The notes below the pieces were generated by a model, which was given only the letters and a program-made list of their open reading frames with translations, was not told the DNA's origin and made no database searches. 64,000 nt of DNA. Origin: an uncultured Nitrospiraceae bacterium. Its GTDB lineage: Bacteria > Nitrospirota > UBA9217. The stretch is from contig CAYUSP010000009.1 in assembly GCA_964447405.1 (NCBI GenBank), positions 5,815-69,814 on the forward strand, written 5' to 3'. Below, in pieces: positions 3,611-54,234 of this stretch (the first letter of the stretch is position 1; each line of letters opens with the position of its first letter). Made by a program: the position numbers and the translations under genes.

Positions 3611-3620
3611 ATCTTTTTAA

Positions 3621-3716
3621 CCGCAGATGAACACGGATTAACACCGATAACGACAAAAGAACCGTTCTTCATTGCGAATCGTTTATCACTGTGTCCATCT
3701 GTGTTCATCTGTGGTT
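3621..3716. repeat. inverted pair of GTGTTCATC-type repeat units inside the sdhA-sdhB spacer
   Basis: The left unit CCGCAGATGAACACGGATTAACAC is the reverse complement of the motif. The right unit is GTGTCCATCTGTGTTCATCTGTGGTT. Related units occur near 23014-23038 and 59520-59545. Confidence 0.7.
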
Positions 3717-3746
3717 GAAAACTCTGTTGATCTTCAGGAGTTTTAC

Positions 3747-4487
3747 ATGCATCTTACTCTCTACATCTGGCGCCAGAAAGGGCCGAAGGAAAAAGGAACG
3801 CTGCAGCGCTATGAGGCGAAGGACATCTCCTCCGACATGTCATTCCTCGAAATGCTCGACACGGTCAACGAGTCCCTGATCAAAGACAACCGCGAGCCCA
3901 TCGCCTTTGACAGCGACTGCAGGGAAGGAATCTGCGGAGCATGTGCACAGGTGGTGAACGGCATTCCCCAGGGCCCCCAGAAGAAGACCACCATCTGCCA
4001 ACTCCACATGCGCCACTTCAGGGATGGCGACAGCATCTATGTGGAACCTCTTCGCGCCAGGGCTTTTCCGGTGATCAAAGACCTTGTGGTGGATCGCGGG
4101 GCTTTTGACCGCATCATCCAGTCCGGAGGCTATATCTCCGTGCATACCGGCGGTGTGCCTGATGGAAACACGATCCTGGTCCCGAAAAAAGACGCGGACA
4201 CTGCCATGGATGCCTCGGAGTGCATCGGGTGCGGGGCCTGCGTCGCGGCCTGCCCGAATGGTTCCGCCATGCTCTTCACCGCGGCCAAGGTAACACACCT
4301 TGCCGTGCTGCCCCAGGGAAAGACCGAAGCAGCCCGCCGTGTCTGCGTCATGACCGAGGAGATGCTGAACCAGGGTTTCGGCAACTGCAGCAACCATTAT
4401 GAGTGCCAGGCAGTCTGCCCCAAAGGGATTAAGGCGCAGTTCATCGCGAAGTTGAACCGGGAGTTCATCAAAGCGCGGATATCGTGA
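3747..4487 (+). CDS. sdhB: succinate dehydrogenase/fumarate reductase iron-sulfur subunit
   Basis: Cys clusters [21 protein letters not shown] and CQAVCP. ATG 3747 is preceded by CAGGAG. The track start 3672 runs through the repeat element and is rejected. Confidence 0.95.
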
Positions 4488-4555
4488 TTGGTTTACGGGC
4501 ATTTGCTAGTGCACCTTAAAAGCAATGCAACATCGAATACGGGAGGAATTGAGAC

Positions 4556-5389
4556 ATGAAAAAAGGCCTTCTTTTGACTATGGTGCTTATGGTTACCGCG
4601 CTGTCAGGCATCTGCCAGGCAGAAGATACGATCCGCATAAATGGTTCAGGCAGCGCGCTCGACATGATGAAGCCGCTCATTGAGGCTTACAAGAAGACAA
4701 ACCAGAACATCCGTATTGACATGGAAAAACCGCTGGGTAGCTCCGGTGCCATCAGGGCCCTAGTTGCCGGTGCACTGGACATCGCGGTAAGCAGCAAGCA
4801 GCTCAAACCGGATGAAGCCGCGCTCGGGGCTCAGCAGAAGGAGTACGGCAAGACCCCCCTTGCCATAATCACAGAGAAAACAGTGCCACATTCCAACATT
4901 ACCACAAAAGAGCTTGAAGACATCTACGCCAACAGGATGACTCAGTGGAAAAACGGCGAGAAGATCCGTCTGATCCTGCGTCCCGATGAAGATATAGACA
5001 CCAAAATACTGCGCTCACTTTCCCCCGTCTTGAGCGATGCCTTGACCGCGAATAAATCTCATCCAGGCATGATCGTCGCCATAACCGATCCCGAATCGTA
5101 TTCACTCATCTCCAAGACTCCGGGTGGCATAGGAGCTACGGGACTGACTAGTATTATCGTGGAAAAACTTCCGCTGAATATCCTCAGCCTGAATGGCGTC
5201 AAGCCGACGCCAAAGGCGTTGGCTGACAAAACCTACCCCCTTGCAAAAGAGATCAGCTTTATCACCACTGCCAAGACATCGCCCGCGGCAATGAAGTTTA
5301 TTAGATTTATTTATTCTTCGCAGGGTCGCGCCATCGCCGAAAAGACAGGCGTTCTGGTTACTGCCAAACCTGAAGCGGGCAGCAGGTAG
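4556..5389 (+). CDS. periplasmic PstS-family (PBP-like) substrate-binding protein with no adjacent permease
   Basis: Signal peptide MKKGLLLTMVLMVTALSGICQA, an INGSGS motif typical of PstS-like PBP domains, and a strong RBS GGGAGGA. Confidence 0.65.
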   Translation: MKKGLLLTMVLMVTALSGICQAEDTIRINGSGSALDMMKPLIEAYKKTNQNIRIDMEKPLGSSGAIRALVAGALDIAVSSKQLKPDEAALGAQQKEYGKTPLAIITEKTVPHSNITTKELEDIYANRMTQWKNGEKIRLILRPDEDIDTKILRSLSPVLSDALTANKSHPGMIVAITDPESYSLISKTPGGIGATGLTSIIVEKLPLNILSLNGVKPTPKALADKTYPLAKEISFITTAKTSPAAMKFIRFIYSSQGRAIAEKTGVLVTAKPEAGSR

Positions 5390-5415
5390 TCAGCTCCGGC
5401 GCTTGCAGTAATAGC

Positions 5416-5452
5416 CATAAAAAGGCCGGATCAAATATCTTGACCCGGCCTT
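5416..5452 (-). terminator. rho-independent terminator (possibly bidirectional) between the convergent genes
   Basis: 8-bp GC-rich stem AAGGCCGG/CCGGCCTT. An A-run on the plus strand gives a T-run after the stem on the minus strand. Confidence 0.5.
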
Positions 5453-5497
5453 ATACCCTTCGTTGCATCCAACTATCTGCGATTTGAACGCTTCAGC

Positions 5498-6403
5498 TCA
5501 CACCTGGCTGATGGCAGTAAGCTTCCAGCTGTTGCTCCCGACAGCTCCGGTGAATGTCCAGTACTCTTCAAACTTCACGGGCTCTGTCTTGCTGCCCGCC
5601 ACAACCTCTCCCGTCGCATCATCAATGGTATAGTCCAGAAGGTTGGCCGTAAAAAGGGCCTTAACGTAGTCCATCCCGGATTCCTGCCACGCTTCCACGA
5701 TCTCGACCTTGCGCACCGCGATGTTCTCAAGCTTGTTGCTCTTTTTGTCCTTCAGCAGTTTGTCGATATCTTCCTGGAATATGTTTTTCATCTCATTAGT
5801 CAGAAGGCTGGTGCCCGCAGACAAATTTCTATTTGTCCAGCAACCCTGAATCTTGAAAAAGACATCCATGGCTGTTTCCTTGAAGCGGTTCTCCTCAATT
5901 AAAGGGACAGTGCGGCTCTGATCCACCCCGCTGTCCACGCCAACCGGGAAACTTCCCCGTTCCTGATAGGTTCCCTGCTGCGCTTGTCCTGCGTATGCGA
6001 GGGCTGCATCGCGCCGTTTTTTAGTTACCATGTAATAGATCAGGTAGGCGATGCCCCCGAGCATGATGATCTCGAACATGCCGAATCCGCTTCCCCCTAA
6101 ACCGCCTCCTGCTCCAGCAAAGCCCAGGCTGCTGAAAAGCATGCCGCCCAACAGTCCGCCGAGGATGCCTCCACCCATGCTCCTGAGAAAGCCGCCACCC
6201 GCGGGCTGGGCCGGTGCCTGCGCAGTTTGCTGGCTTGGAGCGCTGGAATAGGACCGGCTCGGAGCACCGGAACTTCTTGAACCGCTGCCGCCGAACGACC
6301 TTCCTCCGCCCGCACGTGCATCAGCATCCTGAACAAATGCGGCTGCGCCGGCGAACAGCATTACCAATATCAACGATAGTACCCAACGATCAGTTCTCTT
6401 CAT
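5498..6403 (-). CDS. Tim44-like domain membrane protein with a Gly/Ser-rich linker
   Basis: N-terminal signal/TM segment, G/S-rich low-complexity region, TM helix FEIIMLGGIAYLIYYMV and a C-terminal Tim44-type fold-like sequence. RBS AAGGAGA. Confidence 0.7.
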   Translation of the reverse strand: MKRTDRWVLSLILVMLFAGAAAFVQDADARAGGGRSFGGSGSRSSGAPSRSYSSAPSQQTAQAPAQPAGGGFLRSMGGGILGGLLGGMLFSSLGFAGAGGGLGGSGFGMFEIIMLGGIAYLIYYMVTKKRRDAALAYAGQAQQGTYQERGSFPVGVDSGVDQSRTVPLIEENRFKETAMDVFFKIQGCWTNRNLSAGTSLLTNEMKNIFQEDIDKLLKDKKSNKLENIAVRKVEIVEAWQESGMDYVKALFTANLLDYTIDDATGEVVAGSKTEPVKFEEYWTFTGAVGSNSWKLTAISQV

Positions 6404-6650
6404 TAGTGTGAATCTCCTTTGCGCATGTTAAAACAACATTAAAGTGCTTTACCTGTTAGTGCACTATACAGTATAAATCCGGACAATGATAGGACAAACC
6501 ACCATATCATGAGCCTCCTATTCAACTCCCCGGAGCTGCAAACGTGGAATCCCATCTAATTTGACAGGGTCCATATATTCGCACAATTTTGTGATAAACT
6601 TGTGTTTGCGCTTCCTGTTAACGACAAACAGTATATTGCATGGGTGCATT

Positions 6651-9600
6651 ATGGAAAATGAAAACCGACCGGGATTTGTGTCCTTGATCAGAAAGAGCGG
6701 CATCGTGCTGGCAATCTGGGCTGTATTCATCGTTCTCATGTTCGCCTATGAAGCAAAGGATCACTGGAAAGATGCCGAGGAAAATGCTCTCATCTCAGCG
6801 CGTTCCCTCATAGAAAAAGATATCATGTACCGCAAATGGAATGCTTTGCATGGTGGAGTATACGCCCCTGTCACCGAGAGTACTCCGCCGAATCCCTATC
6901 TCACCCAGATGCCCGAAAGGGACATTACAACACCGTCCGGCAGGAAGCTTACCCTGATCAATCCTGCCTATATGACCCGTCAAGTGCATGAACTCGAAAA
7001 TACAACGCGCAGCACACGAGGCCATATAACAAGCCTCAAGCTTCTGCGTCCTGAGAATAAACCTGATGACTGGGAAGTCAAAGCGCTCAACACATTTGAG
7101 CAGGGAGCGTCCGAGGCGGCATCTGTTGAGGTCTTGGAAGGGAAAAGCTATATGAGAGTCATGCGCCCCCTCAATGCGGACAAGGCCTGCCTCAAATGTC
7201 ATGCATTTCAGGGATACAAGGAAGGTGAAATACGGGGTGCGATTAGCGCCTCGATTCCCATGCAGCCCTTTAATGTCAGCCTGTATAAGTCCATGCGCAC
7301 AGAGGGCCTGTTGTATCTTTTCTACCTGGTTATTGGTTCCGGGTTGATCATCTCGCGAACACAAAGTGAGGAAAGAAAGAAGCTTGTTTTGAGCCAAAGC
7401 GAAGAGCGCCACCGTATGATGTACAACAATACGCCTGCCATGCTCCACTCGATAGACCGGGACGGGCGATTAGTTAGCGTCAGCGACTACTGGCTGGCAG
7501 TAATGGGTTATGAACGCGAAGAAGTACTCGGACGGCGGTCCTCTGAATTTCTGACAGAAGCTTCTCGCCGCCATGCCATTGAGGTTGTTCTGCCCGAGTT
7601 CATGAAAAGCGGGTCCTGCAAGGACGTGGAATATCAGTTTGTAAAGAAAAACGGGGAAGTCATGGATGTGCTGCTGTCCGCGATATCCGAACGGGATGCC
7701 GGGGGAACGGTGGTACGATCGCTGGCCGTCATTCAGGACATTACAAAACGCAAGCTGATGGAAAAAGCGCGGCTGGAAAGCGAGGAGCGCTACAAGACGT
7801 TGTTCACGCGGGCGGGAGACGGCATTTTCACAATGACGGTGGACGGCAGCCTGGTCGAGGTCAACGATTCCCTGGCCCGGATGCACGGGTACAGCCAACA
7901 GGAAATGCTGCGCATGAATTTGAAGGATCTCGATACGCCCGAAACCACCCGGCAGGTTGCGGATCGGATGCGCCGGCTCCTTGCCGGAGAATCCCTGACC
8001 TTCGAAGTGGAACACTACCACAAGGACGGCCATATCTTCCCGCTCGAAGTGTCAGCCAGCCTTATTAGGTATGGCGACAGATCCTATATTCAGTCTTTTC
8101 ACCGAGACATCACCGAGCGCAAACGGGCCGAGGACGCACTGCGAAAGAGCGAGGAGCGCTTGCATGTCATTCTTGAGTCGACCGCGGACGGCATTCTCGC
8201 TGTCAACGCTGCAGGCAAAACGATTATGACCAACAAGCGATTTGCGGAGCTTTGGCGAATTCCCCAGCCGCTCATTGATGCAGGTGATGACAAGGGCATG
8301 CTGGACTGTGTTCTTGCGCAGCTGACCCACCCCGAGGCATTCATCAATAAGGTGAAGGCTCTGTATAACTCAGCGGAAATCGACCGGGACATTATAGTAT
8401 TTAAGGATGGCCGCACCTTTGAACGATACTCAGCTCCCCTGCGGTATGAGGGTGCCGCAATCGGCAGATTATGGTCCTTCCGGGACGTCACGGAAAAACT
8501 GAAACTCGAAGACCAGCTTCGCCAATCCCAGAAGATGGAATCCGTGGGGACCCTTGCTGGCGGCATCGCGCACGACTTCAACAATATTCTGACCGCTATC
8601 ATCGGTTACGGGCATATCGCACTTATGAAACTGGAGCACGATAATCCCCAGAGGCAGAACATAAAAAACATACTTACCGCCGCGGACCGGGCCACGTATC
8701 TTACCCAGGGACTGCTTGCCTTCAGCAGAAAGCAGATGAGCAACAAGAAGCAGATTGATCTGAACGATGTCATGAAAAAGACCGAGAATTTCCTCAGCCG
8801 CATAATCGGCGAGGATATCGAGTTCAGAACCAACCTGCATGACGCTCCCTTGATGGTTTTTGCCGATCCGAATCAAATCGAGCAGGTGCTGATGAATCTT
8901 GCAACCAACGCACGGGATGCAATGTCCAAAGGCGGGGTCCTGACCGTAGCCATAGAAAGTGCCCGGCTTGGTGAAGAGTTCTCAACCCAGCATGGATTCG
9001 GGAAGCCCGGCTTATATGGAATGATAACCGTGTCCGACACCGGCATCGGCATGTCAGAAGAAATCCAACAGAGAATGTTCGAACCGTTCTTTACGACCAA
9101 GGAAGTCGGAAGGGGCACCGGTCTCGGTCTGGCGATCATCTACGGCATCATGAAACAGCATGAGGGATTCATTACGGTGGACAGCGGACCCGACAAGGGC
9201 ACCACCTTCCGGATGTATCTGCCGATCATTGAATCCGCTGTTTCTGAGACCGTGAAGTCGGAAGAAACAGCATCTCCCGTACGGGGAAAAGAGACGATCC
9301 TCCTGGCGGAAGATGAGGAGACCTTGCGTGAATTGTGGAGATCGGTGTTCGAAGAATTCGGGTATGAAGTGATCGTTGCTGTTGACGGAGAAGATGCGGT
9401 GAAAAAGTTCTCTGAGAATAAAGACCGGATCCATCTTTTCGTGTCGGATCTCATCATGCCGAAAAAGAACGGCAAAGAGGCATATGATGAGATCATACAG
9501 ATGCGGCCTGACATCAAGGCTGTCTTCGCGAGCGGATATTCACCGGATATCGTCAGAAACAGGACAGCCTTGAGAATTACCGCCAGCATCATCTATAAAC

Positions 9601-9665
9601 CGATATCTCCGATGGATCTTCTGAAAAAGGTGCGTTCAGTTCTGGATGAGGGCACGACAAAGTAA
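6651..9665 (+). CDS. hybrid sensor histidine kinase: DUF3365-like haem-c sensor, multiple PAS domains, HisKA, HATPase and a C-terminal receiver
   Basis: A CLKCH motif follows the first TM helix. Repeated PAS S-box segments are present, along with H-box GGIAHDFNN, an N/G1/G2 ATPase motif DTGIGM...GTGLGL and a receiver domain ILLAEDEE...[12 protein letters not shown] 6651 (MENENRPG) is preferred to the track start. Confidence 0.9.
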
Positions 9666-9873
9666 TACTTTCGGGAGAATTACGCGTTAGCGGCTCACTG
9701 CCTCTTTATCCGCGTTACCCTCTGACAGCATGATAGTAAGATGCGGCTGCGCTACTGTTCTCAGTTAAAATCGTAATTTGACATTGCTATTCGTCCGCTC
9801 CTGTGATATTTATGTCTCTAATCACCCCATAAGCTGTTCCAATAGCGTTGCAAACCACTTTAAGGAGGGTCTC

Positions 9874-11165: not shown

Positions 11166-12095
11166 ATGAACGCAGTCCAGACCGAAGTCCTGCTTCAGAC
11201 ACTCATCTCCGGCATCCTGCTCGGCGGCCTCTACGCGTTGATCGCACTCGGCATGACCATCATCATGGGCGTCATGAAGATCATCAACCTCGCGCACGGC
11301 GAGCTGATGATGGTCGGCATGTACATAGCCTATGTCCTGTTCGCGTGGCTCCATATCGACCCCTATCTCTCGATCCTCATCGCGGCGCCGGCGCTTTTCC
11401 TGCTGGGCGTTGCAATTCAGAAATACCTTATCAACCCGGTCCTTCGCGTCGAGGCCATCATTCCCGAGAACCAGGTGATCCTGACCGTAGGCATCGGCAT
11501 GGTGCTCGCGAACCTGGCGACTATCATTTTTCAGTCCGATTACCGCCAGACGCCTGTTTCCTACGGCACCAAGGCCTGGTATTTGCGAGACTATTGGAAG
11601 GACGCACCTGTGGATATTTCCCTGTCTCTACCCTGGACCGTATCCTTTACCGTGGCCCTGCTGATCACCGGCGGGCTCTGGTTCTTCCTTACCAAGACCG
11701 ATATGGGGAAGTCTATCCGTGCCACAGCGCAGGACCTGGACGCTGCACAGCTCATGGGCGTGAATGTTGAACGCATGCGTGTCATCACTTTCGGCCTGGG
11801 ATCGTCCCTCGTCGGAGCAGCCGGATGCCTCTTCATCCCGATCTACTATATCTACCCTGATATCGGTGGCCAGTTCACCCTGATCTCGTTCGTCATCACA
11901 ATCCTGGGGGGCCTGGGCTCGACAGTCGGCGCAATCCTCGGCGGCCTGATCCTGGGGCTCTTCGAGTCACTCACAGCCACCTACATCGGCATGGGCTGGG
12001 CGCCCGTCGGTCGGTTCGTCATCTTCGTCGCGGTGCTCATCTTCATTCCCGGCGGCGTGGCGTCGCTCATTAGGAGCAGAAAGTTGGGGAAGTGA
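11166..12095 (+). CDS. livH: branched-chain amino acid ABC transporter permease
   Basis: 309-aa polytopic membrane ORF with LivH-type motifs (LAHGELMMVGMY). Confidence 0.9.
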   Translation: MNAVQTEVLLQTLISGILLGGLYALIALGMTIIMGVMKIINLAHGELMMVGMYIAYVLFAWLHIDPYLSILIAAPALFLLGVAIQKYLINPVLRVEAIIPENQVILTVGIGMVLANLATIIFQSDYRQTPVSYGTKAWYLRDYWKDAPVDISLSLPWTVSFTVALLITGGLWFFLTKTDMGKSIRATAQDLDAAQLMGVNVERMRVITFGLGSSLVGAAGCLFIPIYYIYPDIGGQFTLISFVITILGGLGSTVGAILGGLILGLFESLTATYIGMGWAPVGRFVIFVAVLIFIPGGVASLIRSRKLGK

Positions 12096-12100
12096 AAGAA

Positions 12101-12218
12101 GTGTCGGAGTGTCAGAGTATCATGGTGTCAGAATAACGGAATGAAACTTCAATCAAGTGCTCCTTTACTCCTTTACTCCTTGACACTTTGACACGCTGAC
12201 ACTCTGATTCTTTGACGC
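12101..12218. repeat. compound inverted repeat built from GTGTCAGA-type words, plus a CTCCTTTA tandem
   Basis: GTGTCGGAGTGTCAGAGTATCATGGTGTCAGAA faces TTGACACTTTGACACGCTGACACTCTGA in the livH-livM spacer. CTCCTTTACTCCTTTACTCC lies in between. Confidence 0.8.
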
Positions 12219-12226
12219 ACTAAAGC

Positions 12227-13168
12227 ATGAAAAAATATCTCACCTACATAATTCTCACACTCCTCGCCCTCCTGCCTCTCCTGGGCCTGAGCAGCTACAT
12301 GATGCACATTTTGATCCTCGTCATCATGTGGTCCGTCATCGGCATGGCCTGGAATCTCCTCTCCGGCTACTGCGGCCAGGTATCGTTCGGCCACGCCGCC
12401 TTCTTCGGTGTCGGGGCCTACACTGCCGGCATGCTCTACACAAAACTCGGTATCTCAGCCTGGTGGGGCTTCCCGGCCAGCGTATTCGTAGTATCCCTCT
12501 TCGCCCTGGGAATCGGCTACATCTGCCTCAGGCTTCGTGGCCCCTACTTCGCCCTGGCCACGCTTTCCATGGGCGTGATCTTCCGCATTGTTGCGGAGAA
12601 CCTTGTCGGCGTCACCGGCGGCGACCTCGGCATCATGCTGCGGGAACGCACCTGGGTTGACAAGACCTGGTATTTCTATATCATCCTGGTCATTGCAGCG
12701 GCGACCTATTATCTGGTTCGCAAGGTCATCGAATCCAAACTCGGCTACTACTTCGTCGCCATCCGGGAGGACCAGGACGCGGCCGAATCCCTCGGGATCA
12801 ACACCACAAAATACAAGACCATCGCGCTCATCCTGAGCGCAGGTATTACCGGTTTTGCCGGGGTCTTTTACACCAACTATATGGGCTACATCGACCCCAA
12901 GGTCGTTTTCGCCCTCCATGACATCTCGATCATCGCCATCATGGTCGTGATGGTCGGCGGCGCGGCAACGTACTGGGGCCCGGTCGTAGGCGCCGGCATC
13001 ATGGTGCTCCTGGCTGAGATGATCCGCTCCATCCCCAAGCTCGGCACAGCGCACCACACCTTCTTCGGCATCCTGTTGATCGTCATCATCATCTTCCTGC
13101 CCAACGGCATCGTCGGAGATTTCGCGAAGATCCGGAAGCTCTTCGGTCCGCGGAGGGCTAAAGCATGA
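12227..13168 (+). CDS. livM: branched-chain amino acid ABC transporter permease
   Basis: 313-aa polytopic membrane ORF with [16 protein letters not shown] typical of LivM. Confidence 0.9.
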
Positions 13169-45431: not shown

Positions 45432-45980
45432 TCATCGGACTTCCAACTGAGGCTGGATCTTCCGCGGCTTGCGGAAAGCGCGGATGATCATGGGAACGAC
45501 AAGCATCGCAGCAAGAACGATCCACACTGTTGTGTCGGGATCGCGGATGTACTGGTTCAGATTCAACGTCACGATTGCAATGACCGCGTAATACAGCATG
45601 TCCCCGGCGATTGCAAAGACCCAGCCCATAAGGAATCCATGCCCCGCAGCCATCGCCGAGGCCCGTCCGGTCATCGGGTCCACGCCAAAGGAGATCATGA
45701 CGAGGGAAATGGGGCCTGCACCGGTGCCGCTCATGTGTTCCGCGCTCCTGGCCATTGCAATCTTCATCCGCGCGCTGAGGCGGCTGAGGAACGGGACCAG
45801 ACCTACACCCCATGCGACAAGCCGAAGGATTGGTTCAAACGCGAGAGCGAGCAGGATGTCGGAGATCAGATAGAGACCCGCGGTCACGGGCCAGATCAGC
45901 CCCTTATCACGAGCGAGCAGAACACCGGCCGGAATCCCGCCACCGACAGGGATGAGGAAGAGCATCAATACGGAGAGCAT
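45432..45980 (-). CDS. small multidrug-export-like membrane protein (COG2426-type)
   Basis: Polytopic ~180-aa ORF with IPVGGGIPAGVLLA. ATG 45980 is preferred to the track TTG at 45995. Confidence 0.65.
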   Translation of the reverse strand: MLSVLMLFLIPVGGGIPAGVLLARDKGLIWPVTAGLYLISDILLALAFEPILRLVAWGVGLVPFLSRLSARMKIAMARSAEHMSGTGAGPISLVMISFGVDPMTGRASAMAAGHGFLMGWVFAIAGDMLYYAVIAIVTLNLNQYIRDPDTTVWIVLAAMLVVPMIIRAFRKPRKIQPQLEVR

Positions 45981-46071
45981 GGGGGATACTAACAAAAGAG
46001 ACAGGCAAAAGCAATCGGCGAGAGAGTATCGGCGGGGTAGTAGTGTGTGATCGAACGACTACGGATCCAAG
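45935..46071. repeat. direct repeat copy 1 (~135 bp), covering the 5' codons and upstream region of the export-protein gene
   Basis: About 88 percent identical by hand alignment to 48766-48901, in the same orientation. Confidence 0.85.
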
Positions 46072-46190: not shown

Positions 46191-47423
46191 TTAATGCGTC
46201 AGGCCGCAGCACCGTTTAAACTTTCTGCTGCTTCCGCAGGGACAGGGCTCGTTCCTGCCGACTTTGCTGCTTTGCACAGGCATCGGCGACGGCGCTGTAT
46301 TGGGACGGGCGCTACGAAGCCCTCTGTGCACCCGTCCGATGCAGTCGGCGGCTATCGGTTCAAGTCCGCTGATCAGCACCATGCCTTCTTGCAGCGCTTT
46401 TTCTGGTACGTTGTCAGCCTTCTCCAATTGTTCGACGTACAGCCCGACGCCACCCGTGAGATCCGCAAGATCTCCAAGCGCAGCGGTCACTTCCGAAGAG
46501 AATTTTCTATCATCCATTCCGCCCACGTCGAGCCCCTTGATGAAGTAGTGCACAAAGGCAACCAGGTCCTCGCTTCGTGTCAGCAAGCCGCGGACGCTCA
46601 TCGGGTATTTCGTAGGAGGAAAAAGGAAGTCCTTGCCATGCGGGTCCCATCCGGCGATCTTATTCCAGAGCGTTATGAGCTTATCAAGAAGTGCCCGGGC
46701 TTCCTGCTCGGAATCGAAGACGGCATCCTTCGGATCGAAGATCAGGGGAAGAAAGCGGGACGGCATGACCATCGTTGGCGCGGCTGCGCAGCCATAAAAC
46801 AGGCCGTAGATCTCGTGCAGCGTATGGTCCACGCCGATCTTCCGAAGGGACCTCGTGATCACCCCGAGATCGTCCGGCTCGCGCCGCGGCAATTCGTCTC
46901 CTGTCCGGTTTTTGTCCCTGAACAGACGCGCCAGTGCTTCTTCCGAATGAAGCCACTCAAGGTTTCGCTGCGGCGTTTCATTCGCCTTCCGGACGTCCCT
47001 TGCCAGGTGGAGAGACTTGACGCCGCCTGCCTCGGGGACGTAGTACTCGTACTGTTTCGCAAGATCGTTCATGTTCCCGATCAGACGTTTGCTCACGGTC
47101 ACGGTGAATTCGATCTGCTCATACTCTTGCAGAACCCGTACGATGTCGGCCGGCTCGACCCATTCCGATTCGAGGGCTTGCCGCAGGCCGTCGATGAAAG
47201 CCTGGCGGAATATCCCGGAATTGCCTCTAAACGACCAGGGCAGGATAAAGGAATAGAGCGTCTTTTCGTTCATCACGAGCACGCATTTCTCCCGCTCGAT
47301 CCTGAGAATATTGGCATACCAGTTGCCCAGGAGCGTGTCAGCAGGCCGGATCTCGGCGATCATCGCTTCGCTCAGGCCAAGTTCATCGAGCAATTTTCGT
47401 GTGCAGCGGATCTGAAGCGCCAT
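46191..47423 (-). CDS. SEC-C motif protein with a YecA/UPF0149-like middle domain and an uncharacterised N-domain
   Basis: C-terminal NEPCPCGSSRKFKRCCG, central IYGLFYGCAAAP (YecA-like) and an N-terminal region with LLGNWYANIL. Confidence 0.8.
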   Translation of the reverse strand: MALQIRCTRKLLDELGLSEAMIAEIRPADTLLGNWYANILRIEREKCVLVMNEKTLYSFILPWSFRGNSGIFRQAFIDGLRQALESEWVEPADIVRVLQEYEQIEFTVTVSKRLIGNMNDLAKQYEYYVPEAGGVKSLHLARDVRKANETPQRNLEWLHSEEALARLFRDKNRTGDELPRREPDDLGVITRSLRKIGVDHTLHEIYGLFYGCAAAPTMVMPSRFLPLIFDPKDAVFDSEQEARALLDKLITLWNKIAGWDPHGKDFLFPPTKYPMSVRGLLTRSEDLVAFVHYFIKGLDVGGMDDRKFSSEVTAALGDLADLTGGVGLYVEQLEKADNVPEKALQEGMVLISGLEPIAADCIGRVHRGLRSARPNTAPSPMPVQSSKVGRNEPCPCGSSRKFKRCCGLTH

Positions 47424-48005: not shown

Positions 48006-48407
48006 TCAAACGCTCCAGTCCACGAGCTTTAGATTCTTTATCTGCTTAAACTCTTTGGTGTTATTCGTAACGAGGGTCACGCCAAGCGCGTGAGCGTGAG
48101 CGCCTATCAGCATGTCCATGGATCCGATGGGCCTCCCTGCTCTTTCAAGATCTGCACGGATCGCTCCGTACTCCTGTGCCGCTTTTTCATCGAAGTCCGC
48201 GACTTCAAGAGGGAGAATGAACTCATCAAGGGCTTGCTGGTTCTTTTCGATGTGCAGGCTTTTGGACACACCATAACGAAGTTCCGCAAGGGTGATGGAA
48301 GAAATACCGATATCGCCGATAGCATGAGATTTAAAATGTTTAAGCACTTTGGCGGGATTTTGCTTGATAAGGTAAATGCAGATATTCGTATCCAGCATAT
48401 ACTTCAT
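48006..48407 (-). CDS. vapC: type II toxin, PIN-domain ribonuclease
   Basis: MKYMLDTNICIYLIK and conserved acidic residues. It overlaps vapB by 1 nt. Confidence 0.9.
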   Translation of the reverse strand: MKYMLDTNICIYLIKQNPAKVLKHFKSHAIGDIGISSITLAELRYGVSKSLHIEKNQQALDEFILPLEVADFDEKAAQEYGAIRADLERAGRPIGSMDMLIGAHAHALGVTLVTNNTKEFKQIKNLKLVDWSV

Positions 48408-48634
48408 CAGAAGTCCTCCCGCTTTTGCATCTTTGGCTGTTTCCGCTCAACCATGAAGTCATCGGAGAATTTATCGAGGCTGTGAATCAGAGTATCCCAT
48501 GAGTTCTTTGTCGGGATCAGCACCACGACGTTCCCCGATTTTTTAACAAACACGTGGTCATCCTCGAAACGGAATTCCTTGGGCAGACGAACAGCCTGGC
48601 TTTGTCCGTTTTGAAATAGCTTTGCGGTCTTCAT
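48407..48634 (-). CDS. vapB: type II antitoxin, AbrB/SpoVT-type
   Basis: AKLFQNGQSQAVRLPKEFRF swapped-hairpin motif. Confidence 0.9.
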   Translation of the reverse strand: MKTAKLFQNGQSQAVRLPKEFRFEDDHVFVKKSGNVVVLIPTKNSWDTLIHSLDKFSDDFMVERKQPKMQKREDF

Positions 48635-48645
48635 TACACACCTCC

Positions 48646-48691
48646 GTATAGTCTATACCGGTAATATATACTATTTAACACTGGATTGCAA
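48646..48691 (-). promoter_or_regulatory. vapBC promoter with a palindromic operator
   Basis: The minus strand reads TTGCAA, 17 nt, then TATATT. The perfect palindrome GTATAG-T-CTATAC (48646-48658) sits over the predicted start site. GGAGG lies before the ATG. Confidence 0.55.
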
Positions 48692-48765
48692 AAGGTTTTT
48701 AGGTGATTGCAGCAAGATCGGCGGGGAATGTACAAAGTCTAACATTATAGACCTGACCCTATCGC

Positions 48766-48901
48766 CTCCGCCGCCGACAGGGATGAGGAAGAGAATTAAT
48801 ACGGAGAGCATGGGGGATACTAACAAAAGAAACCGGCAAATGCAATCGGCGAGAGACTATCGATAGGGAGTAGCGTGTGATCGAACAACTACAGGTTCAA
48901 G
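48766..48901. repeat. direct repeat copy 2, containing a 5' fragment of an export-protein gene (MLSVLILFLIPVGGG...)
   Basis: See copy 1. The reading frame loses similarity after about 16 codons. Confidence 0.85.
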
Positions 48902-49009: not shown

Positions 49010-49033
49010 CAACGTCCCCTATGTTCCCCTATC
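49010..49033 (+). repeat. left inverted repeat at the edge of the AT-richer island
   Basis: CAACGTCCCCTATGTTCCCCTATC matches the reverse complement of 53481-53505 at 18 of the first 20 positions. Confidence 0.55.
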
Positions 49034-49421
49034 TCATATTTCGCGGATCAACGGTATCTGGTAAGCAAAGGAATTCTTCCAATATTGTATTATTCATTTT
49101 CCCTTGTTCATCTAATAGCGTAACAATCGTGGCACCTGATGTGTTTTTAATATTTACTTCATGGCGTGCTATTTTGCGGCCATCTTTCACAAGGAATCTC
49201 CATGGTTCGGTAGCTTTATTAGCTTCAGCTTCAAGTTCCTCAACACAATGCTTTTTGTCATCGAATGCTGATTTTATTTGCCATGCTTCTCTATCTTTAA
49301 ATAGTTCAGGTATTGTTGATCTTGCCTTATTCCAGAGAATCCAGGTATCGGCAGCTTCAACGTAACTAAAGAGCGACAGTACAAGTGATGCAATTAATAA
49401 AAAATAGCTTGCGCAGCTCAT
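49029..49421 (-). CDS. small secreted protein (130 aa), unknown function
   Basis: Signal peptide MSCASYFLLIASLVLSLFSYVEA. The mature part has a normal globular composition with 2 Cys. Confidence 0.6.
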   Translation of the reverse strand: MSCASYFLLIASLVLSLFSYVEAADTWILWNKARSTIPELFKDREAWQIKSAFDDKKHCVEELEAEANKATEPWRFLVKDGRKIARHEVNIKNTSGATIVTLLDEQGKMNNTILEEFLCLPDTVDPRNMR

Positions 49422-49426
49422 TACAG

Positions 49427-49543
49427 TTACCCCCTCCAAGATGTCATTGTTCCGTCAAGGTTATCGATGGGAGTCGCGCTCACTGCCCCGCTCATCCCGA
49501 TCAGCATCCAAGCGGTCGTCAGTCCAATCAATATGATTCTCAT
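49427..49543 (-). CDS. unlisted 38-aa ORF with a signal peptide and a ~15-aa mature peptide
   Basis: AGGAGA lies 7 nt upstream of the ATG. The product is MRIILIGLTTAWMLIGMSGAVSA/TPIDNLDGTMTSWRG. The stop is 5 nt before the next gene's ATG. It is below the 60-aa cutoff of the ORF track. Confidence 0.4.
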   Translation of the reverse strand: MRIILIGLTTAWMLIGMSGAVSATPIDNLDGTMTSWRG

Positions 49544-49611
49544 TTTACGTTTCTCCTATTTGCCACGGCCATAAAAAGCTTCTCATGTATTGCTGATGTA
49601 TCTCACATTAT

Positions 49612-49995
49612 TTATAATTCTTTCATACACTGCAATGCCAACATATGAAGGTCTTTGCCTTTCCTTATCGTCAAGGCACTTCTTTTTAAATTTGATTTAG
49701 TACAGGTCACGCTGGTCGATATAGCGACATCTTCACTTGTCATGCACGAAAGCGTTTTGGTTTCATAAATAGTGCGATCTTTATCCCCTTGGCTAGTTAT
49801 AGTTTCTGAAACTTGACACCATATTTGCGTATTCTTTAAGTAGAAATCATGTGCCTTTTTTTGCAAGGATATTGGTGTGTCAATAATATCCTTACCCGGA
49901 GGAGGAGAATAATATAAATACCATTCTGCATTGGCAGTTGAAAATGAAAATACATTTGCCATGACTATGATACTTATAAATATTGTGAATCGCAC
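49612..49995 (-). CDS. small secreted protein (127 aa, 4 Cys), unknown function
   Basis: Signal peptide MRFTIFISIIVMANVFSFSTANA. GTG start. Confidence 0.55.
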   Translation of the reverse strand: MRFTIFISIIVMANVFSFSTANAEWYLYYSPPPGKDIIDTPISLQKKAHDFYLKNTQIWCQVSETITSQGDKDRTIYETKTLSCMTSEDVAISTSVTCTKSNLKRSALTIRKGKDLHMLALQCMKEL

Positions 49996-50040
49996 TTAAC
50001 CGCACCATCCTTTCATCTCACTATAGTAGAATCAGGCATT

Positions 50041-50073
50041 AATTATTAAAGGCTCTATAATAAATAGAGCCTT
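50041..50073 (-). terminator. hairpin terminator after the 99-aa gene
   Basis: Perfect 10-bp stem AAGGCTCTAT/ATAGAGCCTT with a 5-nt loop, followed on the minus strand by TTAATAATT. Confidence 0.5.
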
Positions 50074-50101
50074 CTGTAATGGTCTGCATGTCAATGCTCT
50101 A

Positions 50102-50401
50102 CTAATAGCGTTTGCGAGTTGATTTATTATTACTGTAAGGATTGTCATAAATACTATTGTTATTTGCGGGTGGCTTATCATCCCAAGTTGAAGATCTTCT
50201 CCCCTGTTCGCCAGTGAAGGGATTCGTATTGGGACTCACAGACCAGTTGTTATTGTAGCTATTATCGGGCGATGATCTAAAGTGTGGCTCAACATATGTG
50301 CCATCACTTTTATAATATCCTCTAACGTATTCGCCTGCTAAAGCGTTATTGATTATTACAAACAAGAACAATAACGATAGAACTACTAGTTTTCTAATCA
50401 T
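50102..50401 (-). CDS. small secreted protein with a YxxDGTYVxPHxRSxPD motif
   Basis: Signal peptide MIRKLVVLSLLFLFVIINNALA, followed by GYYKSDGTYVEPHFRSSPDNSYNNNWS...NTNPFTGEQG. This motif recurs in many small bacterial proteins of unknown function. Confidence 0.65.
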   Translation of the reverse strand: MIRKLVVLSLLFLFVIINNALAGEYVRGYYKSDGTYVEPHFRSSPDNSYNNNWSVSPNTNPFTGEQGRRSSTWDDKPPANNNSIYDNPYSNNKSTRKRY

Positions 50402-50733: not shown

Positions 50734-51507
50734 TCACGATAGACGCTGATCGCGTCGCATTTCCAAATAGCCTTCCAACTCATCAATAGCTACCTCCATT
50801 GTACGGTTACCTTGACGTCGATAGAGATGCAAGCCATTATTTTGATTTAAAAACGCCAATTTTTTTCTATCCAAGACTTGAATTCGCGCGATATAGAGGC
50901 CGTCAACCTCAATAAATACTACGTCCACATAATCATTAATTGGAGAACCATCCTTGAACTTGCCAGTAATCTGATTTCTCAACTCAAGCTGCCATCTATC
51001 GGCGTTAAAGTCAGCGCAGCCCAGCAGAATACAATCGTCGCGAAGACCAATAGGTTGTGCGTCATCAGACACACCCGCAAATAGCACACCGCCTCCACTA
51101 TTCAGAAACGCTGCTATTGTCTTTAATGCGGAGAAGAGTACCACATCGGATTTTAACTGCTGATGTGGCGTTCCAGGTACCGCAGCCGCACGTTTATGAT
51201 CATATAGGAGTGATGATTTATATTCTCTCGCGGATGTTTCGCCTTGACGCAACTCAAGCGTTACAGTCAAGGCAGAGTGCTGACCGCGTTCAGAGGAACG
51301 CATAATGCGCGGGGTAGTAAAGTCTCCCGTGGATAGCGGAGGTATAAGATCGAAGGACCAATCTGATGTAAATTTTCTGACAGAATCTAATTGATCAAGC
51401 GCCATGCCTTTAGCATCAAGGGCGGATATGAGAGCATTCAACGTTACCTCACAACCAGAGGCAAGGGCAGATGCTACTATTTTTTGAAGCTCAGGTGTAA
51501 TACTCAT
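50734..51507 (-). CDS. AlbA_2 (Schlafen-type, divergent AAA-4) domain protein with an unknown ~90-aa N-domain
   Basis: EYKSSL...LKTIAAFLNSGGGVLFAGVSDDAQPIGL matches the AlbA_2 core. The start is either ATG 51507 or TTG 51522, which abuts the upstream stop. Confidence 0.7.
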   Translation of the reverse strand: MSITPELQKIVASALASGCEVTLNALISALDAKGMALDQLDSVRKFTSDWSFDLIPPLSTGDFTTPRIMRSSERGQHSALTVTLELRQGETSAREYKSSLLYDHKRAAAVPGTPHQQLKSDVVLFSALKTIAAFLNSGGGVLFAGVSDDAQPIGLRDDCILLGCADFNADRWQLELRNQITGKFKDGSPINDYVDVVFIEVDGLYIARIQVLDRKKLAFLNQNNGLHLYRRQGNRTMEVAIDELEGYLEMRRDQRLS

Positions 51508-51522
51508 AGAGTAAGCTGCCAA

Positions 51523-53451
51523 TTATATTGTAATTGTCATCCGTCCGAGGAGGTCCTCAACCATAAGCTCCGCTCGGTGACTCCAAAACTCTCGCAATCC
51601 ATCGGCGCCATTTCGCAAGGAATTGAAGCATGTTTCATCTATGTAGGCTCTCTGCAAAATCGCCGAAGAATGAGCGAACTCAATCTGCCGCTCAATTAAA
51701 ACTTGGCCAGGATTCTTTGCTTTCCATATATTGTTAGATTGCCGACTAAGCGGCATAAGATTACAGACTGCATTGGCCCAATCACGCCCGGCACGCCGCT
51801 CATCAAGCAATTCAGCAAGTCCACCAGCACGGTTATTTCTGCACCAGTCTCTCGGATAAATATGGTGGAGTTGCACTGCAGATTCCTGCTGAGGAAATCT
51901 GAGACTTATGTTGTCATCCAGCAAATCTTTATCTGCCGCAGCAAGCATGGGAAGGTATAAAGCCTTCTGCATCGCACCGCCTGGTCGTCCATCAGTTATG
52001 TACTCTGCTAGATCTTCTCGTGATGGAAGCGGTTTCCCGATGAGCTGCCCAAGCTCTTGATCAATAGCTGCAGCCCATTGCGCACCAGTGTTATAGTTAC
52101 GTCGCTTGTTGAGTAGACGCTTGAGGTCCTTAATATCAACGCCGAGTTGAGTTAGGAAGCCCTGGTCGTATCTATTGGTGAGAGCATTTCTCCAAAAGAA
52201 TGCCTTAAATAACGATGCGAGGTCATCAAGACTCCACCTATGAGTGTCAGGTGCATCAAAGTGGACATGCGCCCGAAGTGCAACGTAAATTGATGAGCTA
52301 ACAGGATATGGACACCACTTCCATGGGAAAAGCCCGCCTGCGACAGTAATTTGAAAATCACGTAAATAGCCCGCAAGCAGTTGATCTGATGACATGAAGA
52401 GCTTCCAATGTTCAGTCGGTGTTGCAAGGAGATCACCAGCCTTGACTGATGTAATTGGAGTAATCGTAGCTCGCCCGACTCTCCGCGCAGGTGTCTTTAT
52501 TTCGAGTGCCACATGACAAGCTGTCGCCATCTGAACCACCAGCTCTGGGCGATCATGTGTATCAGACCAGCCGATTGCGCCCTCCTTTTGCCCGAAGTCA
52601 TCAATCCATTCTCGAAGTCTTACAGGACCTGTAGCCTCGCGTGCGGTGTCCGCATATAGCCAAGAATGAATAAGGTCAACGGTGGATACCTTTGTACCCG
52701 TTGTATTCAGCTTCTCAAATATTTCACAAATGTCCGACAGGGAGTACGTATCTGGAACAATATATACTGCAAGTTTAGTGCGGCTAATTCCTTCGAACGC
52801 ACGCTTTAGAACCGTATTGCGCCGCTCAAGTTCATCCAATTGGGGCATTTGACCATTTGTATAAAAAGCGGGGTCTCGTATCGCTTGAATGTAGCGAAGC
52901 CATTGACCAAGAAATGCTTCACCTGCAATATTGCTTGACAAGGGAAAGCAACCCTGAGATATACATGTGGCATCATTATCAAAATGCCTTGCAGTAACTT
53001 CTGCCTCTTTGAGAAATATAATTTGCTCAAGAGGATCGGACGCAGCGACGTTCAAATAGTATCTTCCTGATGTTCGATAGTCACCATGCGCAGTTCGAAA
53101 CCCCCCGAATGCTAATGCGACCGCTGTGCAACGCTGCAATCCATCCAACACTGCAAATACTTTGCGCGGGTTATCCGGCCCATTACAAAAACTACGGCGT
53201 ATTTCCTCCGCTCCATGGTGTTCACGGTCAGCAAGCGAGAGTGGGCCAAGTTCCAGTGATGTATCATCTGCCTGTTCCCAAATTGTTGCCATACCGATAG
53301 GGCGGGCGCACAGAATCGAATGGATTAATTCAATTACATCCCCGACCGACCATACAAATTCGCGCTGAAATTGAGGAATTAACCATTCGCGCGATTTCAG
53401 CTTTCTAAGCAGCTCTTCAATTGTTAAACTTGTTACCGATAAATCTGCCAT
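51523..53451 (-). CDS. GmrSD-like DUF262 (ParB-like NTPase) plus DUF1524 (His-Me/HNH-like nuclease) protein
   Basis: N-terminal IPQFQREFVW and LDGLQR motifs. C-terminal LHHIYPRDW ... NLMPLSRQSNNIWKAKNP. Confidence 0.8.
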   Translation of the reverse strand: MADLSVTSLTIEELLRKLKSREWLIPQFQREFVWSVGDVIELIHSILCARPIGMATIWEQADDTSLELGPLSLADREHHGAEEIRRSFCNGPDNPRKVFAVLDGLQRCTAVALAFGGFRTAHGDYRTSGRYYLNVAASDPLEQIIFLKEAEVTARHFDNDATCISQGCFPLSSNIAGEAFLGQWLRYIQAIRDPAFYTNGQMPQLDELERRNTVLKRAFEGISRTKLAVYIVPDTYSLSDICEIFEKLNTTGTKVSTVDLIHSWLYADTAREATGPVRLREWIDDFGQKEGAIGWSDTHDRPELVVQMATACHVALEIKTPARRVGRATITPITSVKAGDLLATPTEHWKLFMSSDQLLAGYLRDFQITVAGGLFPWKWCPYPVSSSIYVALRAHVHFDAPDTHRWSLDDLASLFKAFFWRNALTNRYDQGFLTQLGVDIKDLKRLLNKRRNYNTGAQWAAAIDQELGQLIGKPLPSREDLAEYITDGRPGGAMQKALYLPMLAAADKDLLDDNISLRFPQQESAVQLHHIYPRDWCRNNRAGGLAELLDERRAGRDWANAVCNLMPLSRQSNNIWKAKNPGQVLIERQIEFAHSSAILQRAYIDETCFNSLRNGADGLREFWSHRAELMVEDLLGRMTITI

Positions 53452-53509: not shown

Positions 53510-53878
53510 TCAAAATGCTTTCCTCACGCCCTTCGCTCGACCTCTTCCGTAGTTCGCGGCGGTTTCCGCCACCCGCATGCCCGCCGCTTTCTTCTCCGGC
53601 TCGAACGTCACGCGCACCCGTGCGTGCAGGACCTTCGCCACCCTGCGCAGGGTGCTGAGAGAATGTCCTTCATAGCCAGGTGATTCCAGACGGCTGATCT
53701 GCTGCTGCGAAACCTTAAGGAGCTTTGCCAGGTCGTTCTGGGAAAGGCCCGCCTGCGTGCGAAGGGCCGCGATCTGGAGCGCCACGTCCCATGCCTCCCC
53801 GGCACGTTCGAAACGGGCGGCAAACTCCGGGTCCTTCAGTTGCTCATCGAGATATTTATCGAAATTCGTCTTTTTCAT
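53510..53878 (-). CDS. XRE-family HTH antitoxin (HigA-like)
   Basis: The HTH is LSQNDLAKLLKVSQQQISRLE. It overlaps the upstream toxin gene by 4 nt. Confidence 0.85.
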   Translation of the reverse strand: MKKTNFDKYLDEQLKDPEFAARFERAGEAWDVALQIAALRTQAGLSQNDLAKLLKVSQQQISRLESPGYEGHSLSTLRRVAKVLHARVRVTFEPEKKAAGMRVAETAANYGRGRAKGVRKAF

Positions 53879-54234
53879 CGTTCAACCCTTTTTATCCAGT
53901 CGCGCATCCGTCCTCTCGCGGTTGCCAGGTCCCGGTCCGGTATGGCCCGGCCCTTATTTCGAATGCCATGCACCGCGACGATCCTGCGGTTCTTCACAAA
54001 AAACCAGAGCACCCGAGTGTTGAGCTTGCCCACGTGGCGCAGTTCAAACAAGCCGTCTCCAAGCGCTTTGGACAGCGGCTCCCGGTGATACTGTCGGTTC
54101 CGCAGTTTCGCGAGACCGGCCACCACGGCCGCGAAATCATCCGGATCAGAGCTCCTGAGCTCGTCCAGAAAATACCGCACAGGGCACGCCCCTGTTTCCG
54201 TTTCATAAAATTCTACTATAAAATCCATAATCAT
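53875..54234 (-). CDS. RelE/ParE-superfamily toxin, Gp49/HigB-like
   Basis: The FYETETGACPVRYFLDEL opening is typical of phage Gp49-like (DUF891) toxins. The toxin-first gene order matches higBA. Confidence 0.8.
   Translation of the reverse strand: MIMDFIVEFYETETGACPVRYFLDELRSSDPDDFAAVVAGLAKLRNRQYHREPLSKALGDGLFELRHVGKLNTRVLWFFVKNRRIVAVHGIRNKGRAIPDRDLATARGRMRDWIKRVER

Follow-up and report, generated by a model that had tools for sequence, protein, structure and literature searches.

GmrSD/BrxU-like enzymes combine an NTP-dependent ParB-like domain with a His-Me finger DNase and cut invading, typically modified, DNA. It was only in 2025-2026 that prokaryotic Schlafens (pSlfns) were shown to be anti-phage tRNases, and 97% of them are described as fused to sensors. 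The two themes meet in proteins that join DUF262, the ParB-like domain, to a Schlafen domain; such fusions make up 1.8% of 5,930 prokaryotic Schlafens and form a listed pSlfn class, one member of which, EcoSlfn7 from E. coli UC4224, published in 2026, lowers T7 plating about 540-fold (PMC13056530). AlbA_2 had already been recorded as a C-terminal addition to DUF1524 proteins by Jablonska et al. in 2017 (PMC5714182), and links between HEPN RNases and ParB(DUF262)+HNH DNases had also been noted earlier (PMC3710099). In this study, we analyzed a 64,000-nucleotide stretch of contig CAYUSP010000009.1 (assembly GCA_964447405.1) from an uncultured Nitrospiraceae bacterium, referred to here as the window, in which a GmrSD-family gene is followed by a separate gene for a Schlafen/AlbA_2 protein, its partner. 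The pair is real and well conserved; it varies the recently validated GmrSD-Schlafen theme by dividing it between two genes and is not a new, so far unclassified type of system. An earlier note on the window, made from the sequence alone, knew of no named system with this architecture; that claim does not survive the DUF1524 and AlbA_2 combination and the DUF262-Slfn class cited above, or the plasmid-borne fusions of about 710 amino acids (aa) described below. The components of the pair, in window coordinates, are as follows.

51523 to 53451, minus strand: GmrSD-family gene, 642 aa, with an N-terminal DUF262/ParB-like NTPase domain, a helical middle and, at the C terminus, a DUF1524 His-Me finger nuclease domain (open reading frame [ORF] listing, Pfam, PADLOC)
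52657 to 53421, minus strand: DUF262/GmrSD_N domain, residues 11-265, which holds QFQREFVW and DGLQR (the latter at 53131 to 53145; Pfam, motif search)
51646 to 51888, minus strand: core of the DUF1524/GmrSD_C His-Me finger, residues 522-602, with HH at 51862 to 51867, then N564 and N573 (sub-cut-off Pfam match, BrxU alignment)
50734 to 51507, minus strand: Schlafen/AlbA_2 partner gene, 257 aa, with a winged-helix-like N-domain and a Schlafen/AlbA_2 nuclease domain (ORF listing, Pfam, AlphaFold2, Foldseek)
51292 to 51507, minus strand: N-domain of the partner, residues 1-72, H-E-H-H-E-E and winged-helix-like, specific to the split family (predicted secondary structure, Foldseek)
51217 to 51240, minus strand: Ex4ExK motif (ETSAREYK), where the active site of the Schlafen RNase is predicted (translation, homologue conservation)

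The two genes lie on the same strand, with 15 nt between the GmrSD stop codon and the partner ATG; the junction reads ...ATA TAA TTG GCA GCT TAC TCT ATG AGT..., in which TAA is the GmrSD stop. The partner starts at the ATG at position 51507, since its homologues open with MAITPELQ or MPVTPELQ and gene callers choose the same ATG. The same evidence rules out a 262-aa protein beginning at the abutting TTG. The Schlafen domain and its position next to the GmrSD gene were correctly read in the earlier note; the start that was said to abut the GmrSD stop has to be replaced by one that follows a 15-nt gap.

One genome per species was scanned with an alignment of the GmrSD clade, which gave 45 loci in Proteobacteria, Acidobacteriota, Chloroflexota, Actinomycetota, Planctomycetota, Fibrobacteres and other phyla. 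With the partner profile, 35 of these loci proved to have a partner gene as the next gene downstream on the GmrSD strand; two of the remaining 10 are truncated by a contig end. Where starts could be assigned (31 loci), the two genes overlap by up to 14 nt, with TAATG and GTGTGA among the overlaps, or stand up to 44 nt apart (gap, -14 to +44 nt); GmrSD and partner are always separate polypeptides, and Ex4ExK sits near residue 90 in each partner. In the reciprocal direction, all eight informative metagenome loci found via the partner profile have a GmrSD gene upstream. Homologue searches with both proteins returned matches that correspond pairwise, by the size of the longest contig, in about 19 cases, including the chromosome of Geomonas nitrogeniifigens. 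The two proteins are also coinherited: over 29 loci, their pairwise identities correlate (Pearson r = 0.83), and the partner evolves faster, with a mean pairwise identity of 29% versus 45% for GmrSD. It is concluded that the pairing is not due to chance, in line with the tight coupling suggested in the earlier note, and the two genes are probably translated together.

All-against-all clustering of flanking ORFs revealed no third conserved gene, and the 119 ORFs that flank the pair (the two nearest on each side, 31 loci) match 133 Pfam families, none of which is found in more than three loci. Because no third gene recurs and the flanks are heterogeneous, the conserved unit consists of exactly two genes, a unit that has been inserted at many different places. 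The sole recurrent neighbor is lepA, in a few alphaproteobacteria; it was considered as a third partner and rejected in favor of an insertion site. The GmrSD gene lies immediately downstream of lepA (elongation factor 4) in loci L021, L022, L044, L015 and L042, which are mostly alphaproteobacterial, L042 being an acidobacterial metagenome-assembled genome (Pyrinomonadaceae) whose locus is cut by a contig end and says nothing about a partner; this suggests that the lepA flank is a recurrent insertion site. In G. nitrogeniifigens (CP077684; L047, positions 2473-9872), a cluster of DNA_methylase (Dcm), HATPase_c_3, Z1, DUF4420 and Vsr genes lies directly upstream of the pair, so that a restriction-like island adjoins a predicted modification-dependent enzyme; L047 corresponds to CP077684 region 714929-736857, and its partner gene is at L047 positions 11940-12716. 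Decaying copies of the pair are present in L028, where an insertion of about 1.2 kb (7224-8431) splits the GmrSD gene, in L030 and L045, which have GmrSD frameshifts, and in L039, where both genes are fragmented.

The closest counterparts of the pair came from plasmids, where a tblastn search with the partner sequence matched the Schlafen domains of "DUF262 domain-containing proteins" of about 710 aa on Sinorhizobium meliloti pSymA and Haloquadratum walsbyi PL100. In these plasmid fusions the order is GmrSD_N, a weak GmrSD_C and AlbA_2. The fused GmrSD-Slfn family is large: about 22 of the 68 nearest nonfamily Schlafen domains in metagenomes belong to it, which places fused DUF262-Schlafen proteins among the nearest nonfamily relatives of the Schlafen domain in the window. 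Fused DUF262(-DUF1524)-Schlafen proteins and the pair share the same modules, namely, a ParB-like DUF262 domain, a putative His-Me nuclease and a Schlafen domain that carries Ex4ExK. They differ in that the fused class is a single polypeptide, whereas the window encodes two, with a TAA stop and 15 nt between their genes; in that the GmrSD part is longer in the pair (642 aa versus about 545 aa); and in that the Schlafen protein of the window has an extra N-domain of about 72 aa that is absent from the fusions. By analogy of domain content, the pair looks like the split-gene counterpart of these proteins (EcoSlfn7 class); EcoSlfn7 itself is likened to the pair by its published description as DUF262 plus Schlafen, a comparison that does not extend to DUF1524 content. 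We found no description in the literature of the split operon form, in which a distinct GmrSD clade is combined with a winged-helix-like N-domain on the Schlafen protein.

The 642-aa protein matches GmrSD_N (PF03235) at 75.7 bits (cut-off, 33.2) over residues 11-265 and contains the QFQREFVW and DGLQR motifs that had been read from the sequence earlier, together with LHHIYPRDW and NLMPLSRQSNNIW. A database search found more than 550 homologues. With a profile of the clade, the sole solved relative by sequence is BrxU (7P9K; 64.7 bits); HHIYP aligns onto the BrxU nuclease motif DHIYP, and the N-terminal domains align too. In all 39 relatives compared, Q29, R30, S45, D103, G104, Q106, R107, H529, H530, N564 and N573 are invariant. 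The departure of DGLQR from the usual motif might have been taken as the sign of an inactive enzyme; that idea was rejected, because position 105, the third of DGxQR, varies across the clade (27 relatives have R, 10 have K and 2 have L) and the other four positions never change, so DGLQR is not a defect. Judged by these motifs, the protein is a bona fide GmrSD-family enzyme of a clade distinct from BrxU, and its sequence indicates that it is probably active.

PADLOC, which the earlier note had proposed to run, saw only half of the pair. Its best model for the GmrSD protein is HEC-05 (91 bits; the best stretch covers residues 7-125 only), which its authors equate with BrxU (bioRxiv 10.1101/2024.01.29.577857); no PADLOC model matches the partner protein. 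The ParB-like QR, S and DGxQR motifs and an xHIYP nuclease motif are common to BrxU/HEC-05 and the window GmrSD, but the likeness to BrxU is essentially confined to the N-terminal domain, and the nuclease motif has HH in the window protein versus DH in BrxU. Furthermore, BrxU is a single gene inside BREX or Hma loci, whereas the window GmrSD is paired, and neither Pfam nor gene-caller annotation shows BREX or Hma genes around the locus, where the neighbors of the pair are HigBA-like genes, small ORFs and a nitroreductase. With a partial model match and no embedding in BREX, Hma or type I restriction-modification loci, the protein falls outside BrxU/HEC-05. A search of NCBIfam gave no match for the GmrSD protein, the partner or three small neighboring ORFs.

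The partner matches SLFN_AlbA_2 (PF04326) at 42.9 bits against a cut-off of 25.3, and its AlphaFold2 model, built with 48 homologues, has a mean pLDDT (predicted local distance difference test score) of 96 and a pTM (predicted template modeling score) of 0.92. A Foldseek search of this model against the Protein Data Bank (PDB) retrieved SLFN11, 12, 13, 14 and 5, with E values of 6e-5 to 1e-3, as well as bacterial DIP2311 and the SAMD9 DNA-binding domain. The partner profile also matches the AFxNxxGGxLxIGVxD core of the catalytic C-lobe of human Schlafens. All 48 homologues and all 31 genomic partners share the Ex4ExK residues E90, E95 and K97 without exception, and D148, which aligns with the third catalytic acid of SLFN14 (D249), is D in 26 of the 31. 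Perez Taboada et al. define Ex4(E/D)xK as the Schlafen catalytic motif, and its mutation in RorSlfn5 abolishes both tRNA cleavage and defense (PMC13056530). Since residues needed in Schlafens are thus invariant in the motif and mostly conserved at the third acid, we read the partner as an RNase effector; on this sequence evidence it is most likely a second nuclease, a Schlafen-type RNase, and not a passive sensor or regulator. Its RNA target is probably tRNA, by analogy with characterized Schlafens.

RorSlfn5 and other single-gene pSlfns likewise have a Schlafen nuclease domain with Ex4(E/D)xK, and the output proposed for the partner, tRNA cleavage and abortive defense, is the same. In pSlfn5, however, the sensor is an Ig-like domain in cis, whereas the partner has no recognized fused sensor and its candidate sensor is a separate GmrSD enzyme. 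An exhaustive profile search of 1.84 billion representatives placed 193 clusters, formed at 50% identity, in the partner family at E ≤ 1e-30, essentially all of them proteins of about 255 aa that span both domains. None of the top 150 relatives, all stand-alone proteins of this size, is fused to another domain; no relatives were found in phage records or viral contigs, and a plasmid search with the partner gave distant Schlafen domains only and no member of the family. Two oddities emerged among the Schlafen matches. One 2,337-aa protein (P0299) has 20 separate matches to the AFxNxGG core, at partner-profile positions 133-156, and may be a repeat protein or a low-complexity artifact, and on some metagenome contigs (L104, positions 1-1836; L075) two Schlafen-domain ORFs occur in tandem.

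The N-domain of the partner, put at about 90 aa in the earlier note, is shorter, about 72-85 aa. In predicted models residues 1-72 have the H-E-H-H-E-E topology, and structure prediction of the domain alone, which had been suggested as a check, gave a pLDDT of 84 and no significant match in the PDB (Foldseek; best E value, 0.37). The top nonsignificant matches are nearly all winged-helix proteins (MarR, Fur, PadR and forkhead); from the modeled topology and the nature of these weak matches, the domain may be described as winged-helix-like. It is missing from the fused GmrSD-Slfn proteins and may serve as a docking or nucleic-acid-binding module.

We propose, with slightly more than even confidence, that the pair is a self-contained two-gene anti-phage module with two different nucleases, in which engagement of GmrSD licenses the Schlafen RNase. 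The Schlafen protein would dock on GmrSD via its N-domain and be held silent; upon engaging phage DNA or a phage factor, GmrSD would cut the DNA and license the RNase, which would then cleave tRNA and shut down translation as a second, abortive layer. The data establish the coupling and coinheritance of the genes and the conservation of both active sites; the physical interaction, the activation logic, the RNA target and the control in trans by GmrSD are inferred. In favor of the proposal are also the Schlafen-like fold of the partner, the precedents of RorSlfn5 and EcoSlfn7, the recurrence of GmrSD-Slfn fusions and the restriction-like island beside the pair in Geomonas.

Several findings weigh against this proposal. 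GmrSD has no partner in one alphaproteobacterial clade (L021, L022, L025 and L044), and L007 is also partner-less, although its closest relatives (about 70% identity) have the partner. GmrSD_C (PF07510) scores 17.1 bits over residues 522-602, under its cut-off of 23. Ex4ExK is kept in most prokaryotic Schlafen domains, and its presence alone is no proof of RNase activity. The flanks of the pair are mostly housekeeping genes, with scattered methyltransferase, TIR-TM or PDC matches, which is a weak defense-island signal. Finally, the DUF262 domains of the fusions match the window GmrSD at an hhalign probability of 97% with 24% identity, over the N-terminal domain only. Because the DUF262 parts are only distantly related, the split form is not simply a recently broken fusion; judging from the sequences, the same DNase-RNase combination has probably arisen independently as a fusion and as an operon.

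The partner-less loci also bear on how the two proteins depend on each other. A distant GmrSD outgroup (L037, L040 and L043) lacks the partner as well, and all partner-less GmrSD proteins tested, a set that does not include L043, retain DGxQR, HH, N and N. Since these lineages have lost no catalytic residue, GmrSD can stand alone; the converse, a partner without GmrSD, was never seen in the 45 genome loci or the informative metagenome loci. The pattern of occurrence is thus asymmetric, and from these sequences the dependence probably runs one way, from the partner on GmrSD. The obligate two-component system envisaged in the earlier note can be upheld at most for the Schlafen partner; for GmrSD it fails on the alphaproteobacterial clade and on L007.

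This asymmetry would also fit an arrangement like that of PrrC and EcoprrI, in which GmrSD acts as the main type IV restriction barrier and keeps the RNase inactive until a phage anti-restriction protein (IPI*-like) inhibits or displaces GmrSD; the RNase, once freed, would abort the infection. The Schlafen tRNase would then monitor GmrSD physically through its winged-helix-like docking domain. Dependence of the partner on GmrSD, tight gene coupling with probable joint translation, and the faster evolution of the partner all speak for such a guard, and PrrC and PARIS are precedents for tRNases that guard restriction functions (cited in PMC13056530). PrrC-EcoprrI and the HEPN/ParB-HNH links share the logic of a restriction-type DNase with a latent back-up RNase; however, this is an analogy only and not homology, since the RNase of the pair has a Schlafen fold and PrrC has an ABC-ATPase/HEPN-like nuclease, or HEPN is used. 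The data reported here fit activation by GmrSD loss and activation by GmrSD sensing alike, but the domains of fused proteins cannot dissociate, so allosteric activation fits better than release. We regard the guard arrangement as unlikely, if the strongest competitor, and prefer firing of the RNase upon engagement of phage DNA by GmrSD over firing upon its neutralization. If the guard arrangement were true, the pair would be a Schlafen-based analogue of PrrC/EcoprrI, in which phage anti-restriction proteins that neutralize GmrSD trigger tRNA cleavage; it would also mean that a DNA-sensing enzyme from another gene can govern Schlafen RNases in trans, as the helicase domain of SLFN11 does in cis.

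The other readings that we considered are less likely. In the earlier note the AlbA_2 protein was cast as a sensor or regulator of the nuclease, that is, as a noncatalytic nucleic-acid-binding sensor or a transcriptional regulator of GmrSD. AlbA-superfamily domains do bind DNA and RNA (PMC5714182), the topology of the N-domain is winged-helix-like, and the Foldseek matches include the DNA-binding domain of SAMD9. However, the winged-helix assignment is statistically nonsignificant, BrxU and the GmrSD enzymes of partner-less lineages work with no such protein beside them, and the invariance of Ex4ExK, with the third acid mostly kept, concerns the same residues that are required for Schlafen RNase activity (PMC13056530). 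The invariant motif favors an RNase effector, and a purely sensory or regulatory role is quite improbable.

It is more doubtful still that the pair is an addiction module or selfish cassette resembling toxin-antitoxin systems, with the Schlafen RNase as toxin, GmrSD as its neutralizer and postsegregational killing as the means of persistence. The cassette is compact, with two genes that may overlap, its contexts are highly variable and mostly unrelated to defense, HigBA-like and VapBC modules adjoin the pair in the window, and pseudogenized copies exist, as listed above. Against this, an antitoxin of 642 aa that is itself an enzyme, with both active sites fully conserved, would be atypical; the upstream gene of the pair encodes this two-domain enzyme, which sets the pair apart from type II toxin-antitoxin systems. 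Moreover, both families are experimentally tied to phage defense (PMC13056530; bioRxiv 10.1101/2024.01.29.577857), and no copy was found in phage records or viral contigs; plasmids give distant matches only. Least credible is the reading of two independent single-gene defenses that merely lie side by side, for although GmrSD-like proteins and many pSlfns act singly (bioRxiv 10.1101/2024.01.29.577857; PMC13056530), the conserved order, strand and near-zero spacing across phyla, the reciprocal test, the correlated divergences and the uniformly stand-alone partner clusters with no recognized sensor domain all speak against it.

Returning to the preferred reading, in which GmrSD engagement licenses the RNase, there appears to be a Schlafen family whose controlling module is provided in trans and is itself a restriction nuclease. 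The split family occurs in Proteobacteria, Acidobacteria, Chloroflexi, Actinobacteria, Planctomycetes and Fibrobacteres. The main interest of the pair is as a handle on the trans regulation of Schlafen RNases: it is a tractable natural experiment in how a DNA-sensing partner switches on such an RNase, and it raises the further questions of whether the DNase and RNase layers are sequential and why the same combination exists both fused and in operon form. The pair also exposes an annotation gap, in that PADLOC models see the GmrSD half only and the partner would be missed.

The surroundings of the pair in the window are as the earlier note described them, an AT-richer block with a HigBA-like neighbor and VapBC nearby; the GC content is 0.39-0.48 over 48-53 kb versus about 0.55 elsewhere in the window, and the toxin-antitoxin genes are identified by Pfam matches, as follows.

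53875 to 54234, minus strand: Gp49/HigB-like toxin gene, upstream neighbor, outside the conserved unit
53510 to 53878, minus strand: helix-turn-helix (HTH) antitoxin gene, upstream neighbor, outside the conserved unit
48006 to 48634: PIN/MazE-type VapBC pair

The HigBA-like genes are not kept beside the pair in other loci. A promoter and terminator scan of the locus gave no signal exceeding the shuffled expectation, and transcriptional read-through from the HigBA-like genes into the pair is possible.

Three small ORFs (136, 127 and 99 aa) at 49029-50401 on the minus strand lie in the stretch of lowest GC content (0.39-0.41) and have hydrophobic N termini; they have no significant Pfam match (one is sub-threshold) and none in NCBIfam or PADLOC, and their products are probably secreted or membrane proteins gained by horizontal transfer. 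Farther along, a direct repeat of about 135 nt, 83-93% identical, is present at 45937-46071 and 48768-48901, the copies being 2,831 nt apart. The repeat duplicates the 5' end and upstream region of a membrane-protein gene (45432 to 45995), a truncated second copy of whose start is found at 48671 to 48826, and the 2.8-kb segment between the repeats looks like inserted DNA whose target or att site has been duplicated. This segment contains, together with the VapBC pair, a gene for a 410-aa protein (46191-47423, minus strand) with DUF6933, UPF0149 and a C-terminal SEC-C motif, which matches the PADLOC candidate models PDC-S63 and PDC-S12 and may be a further defense candidate.

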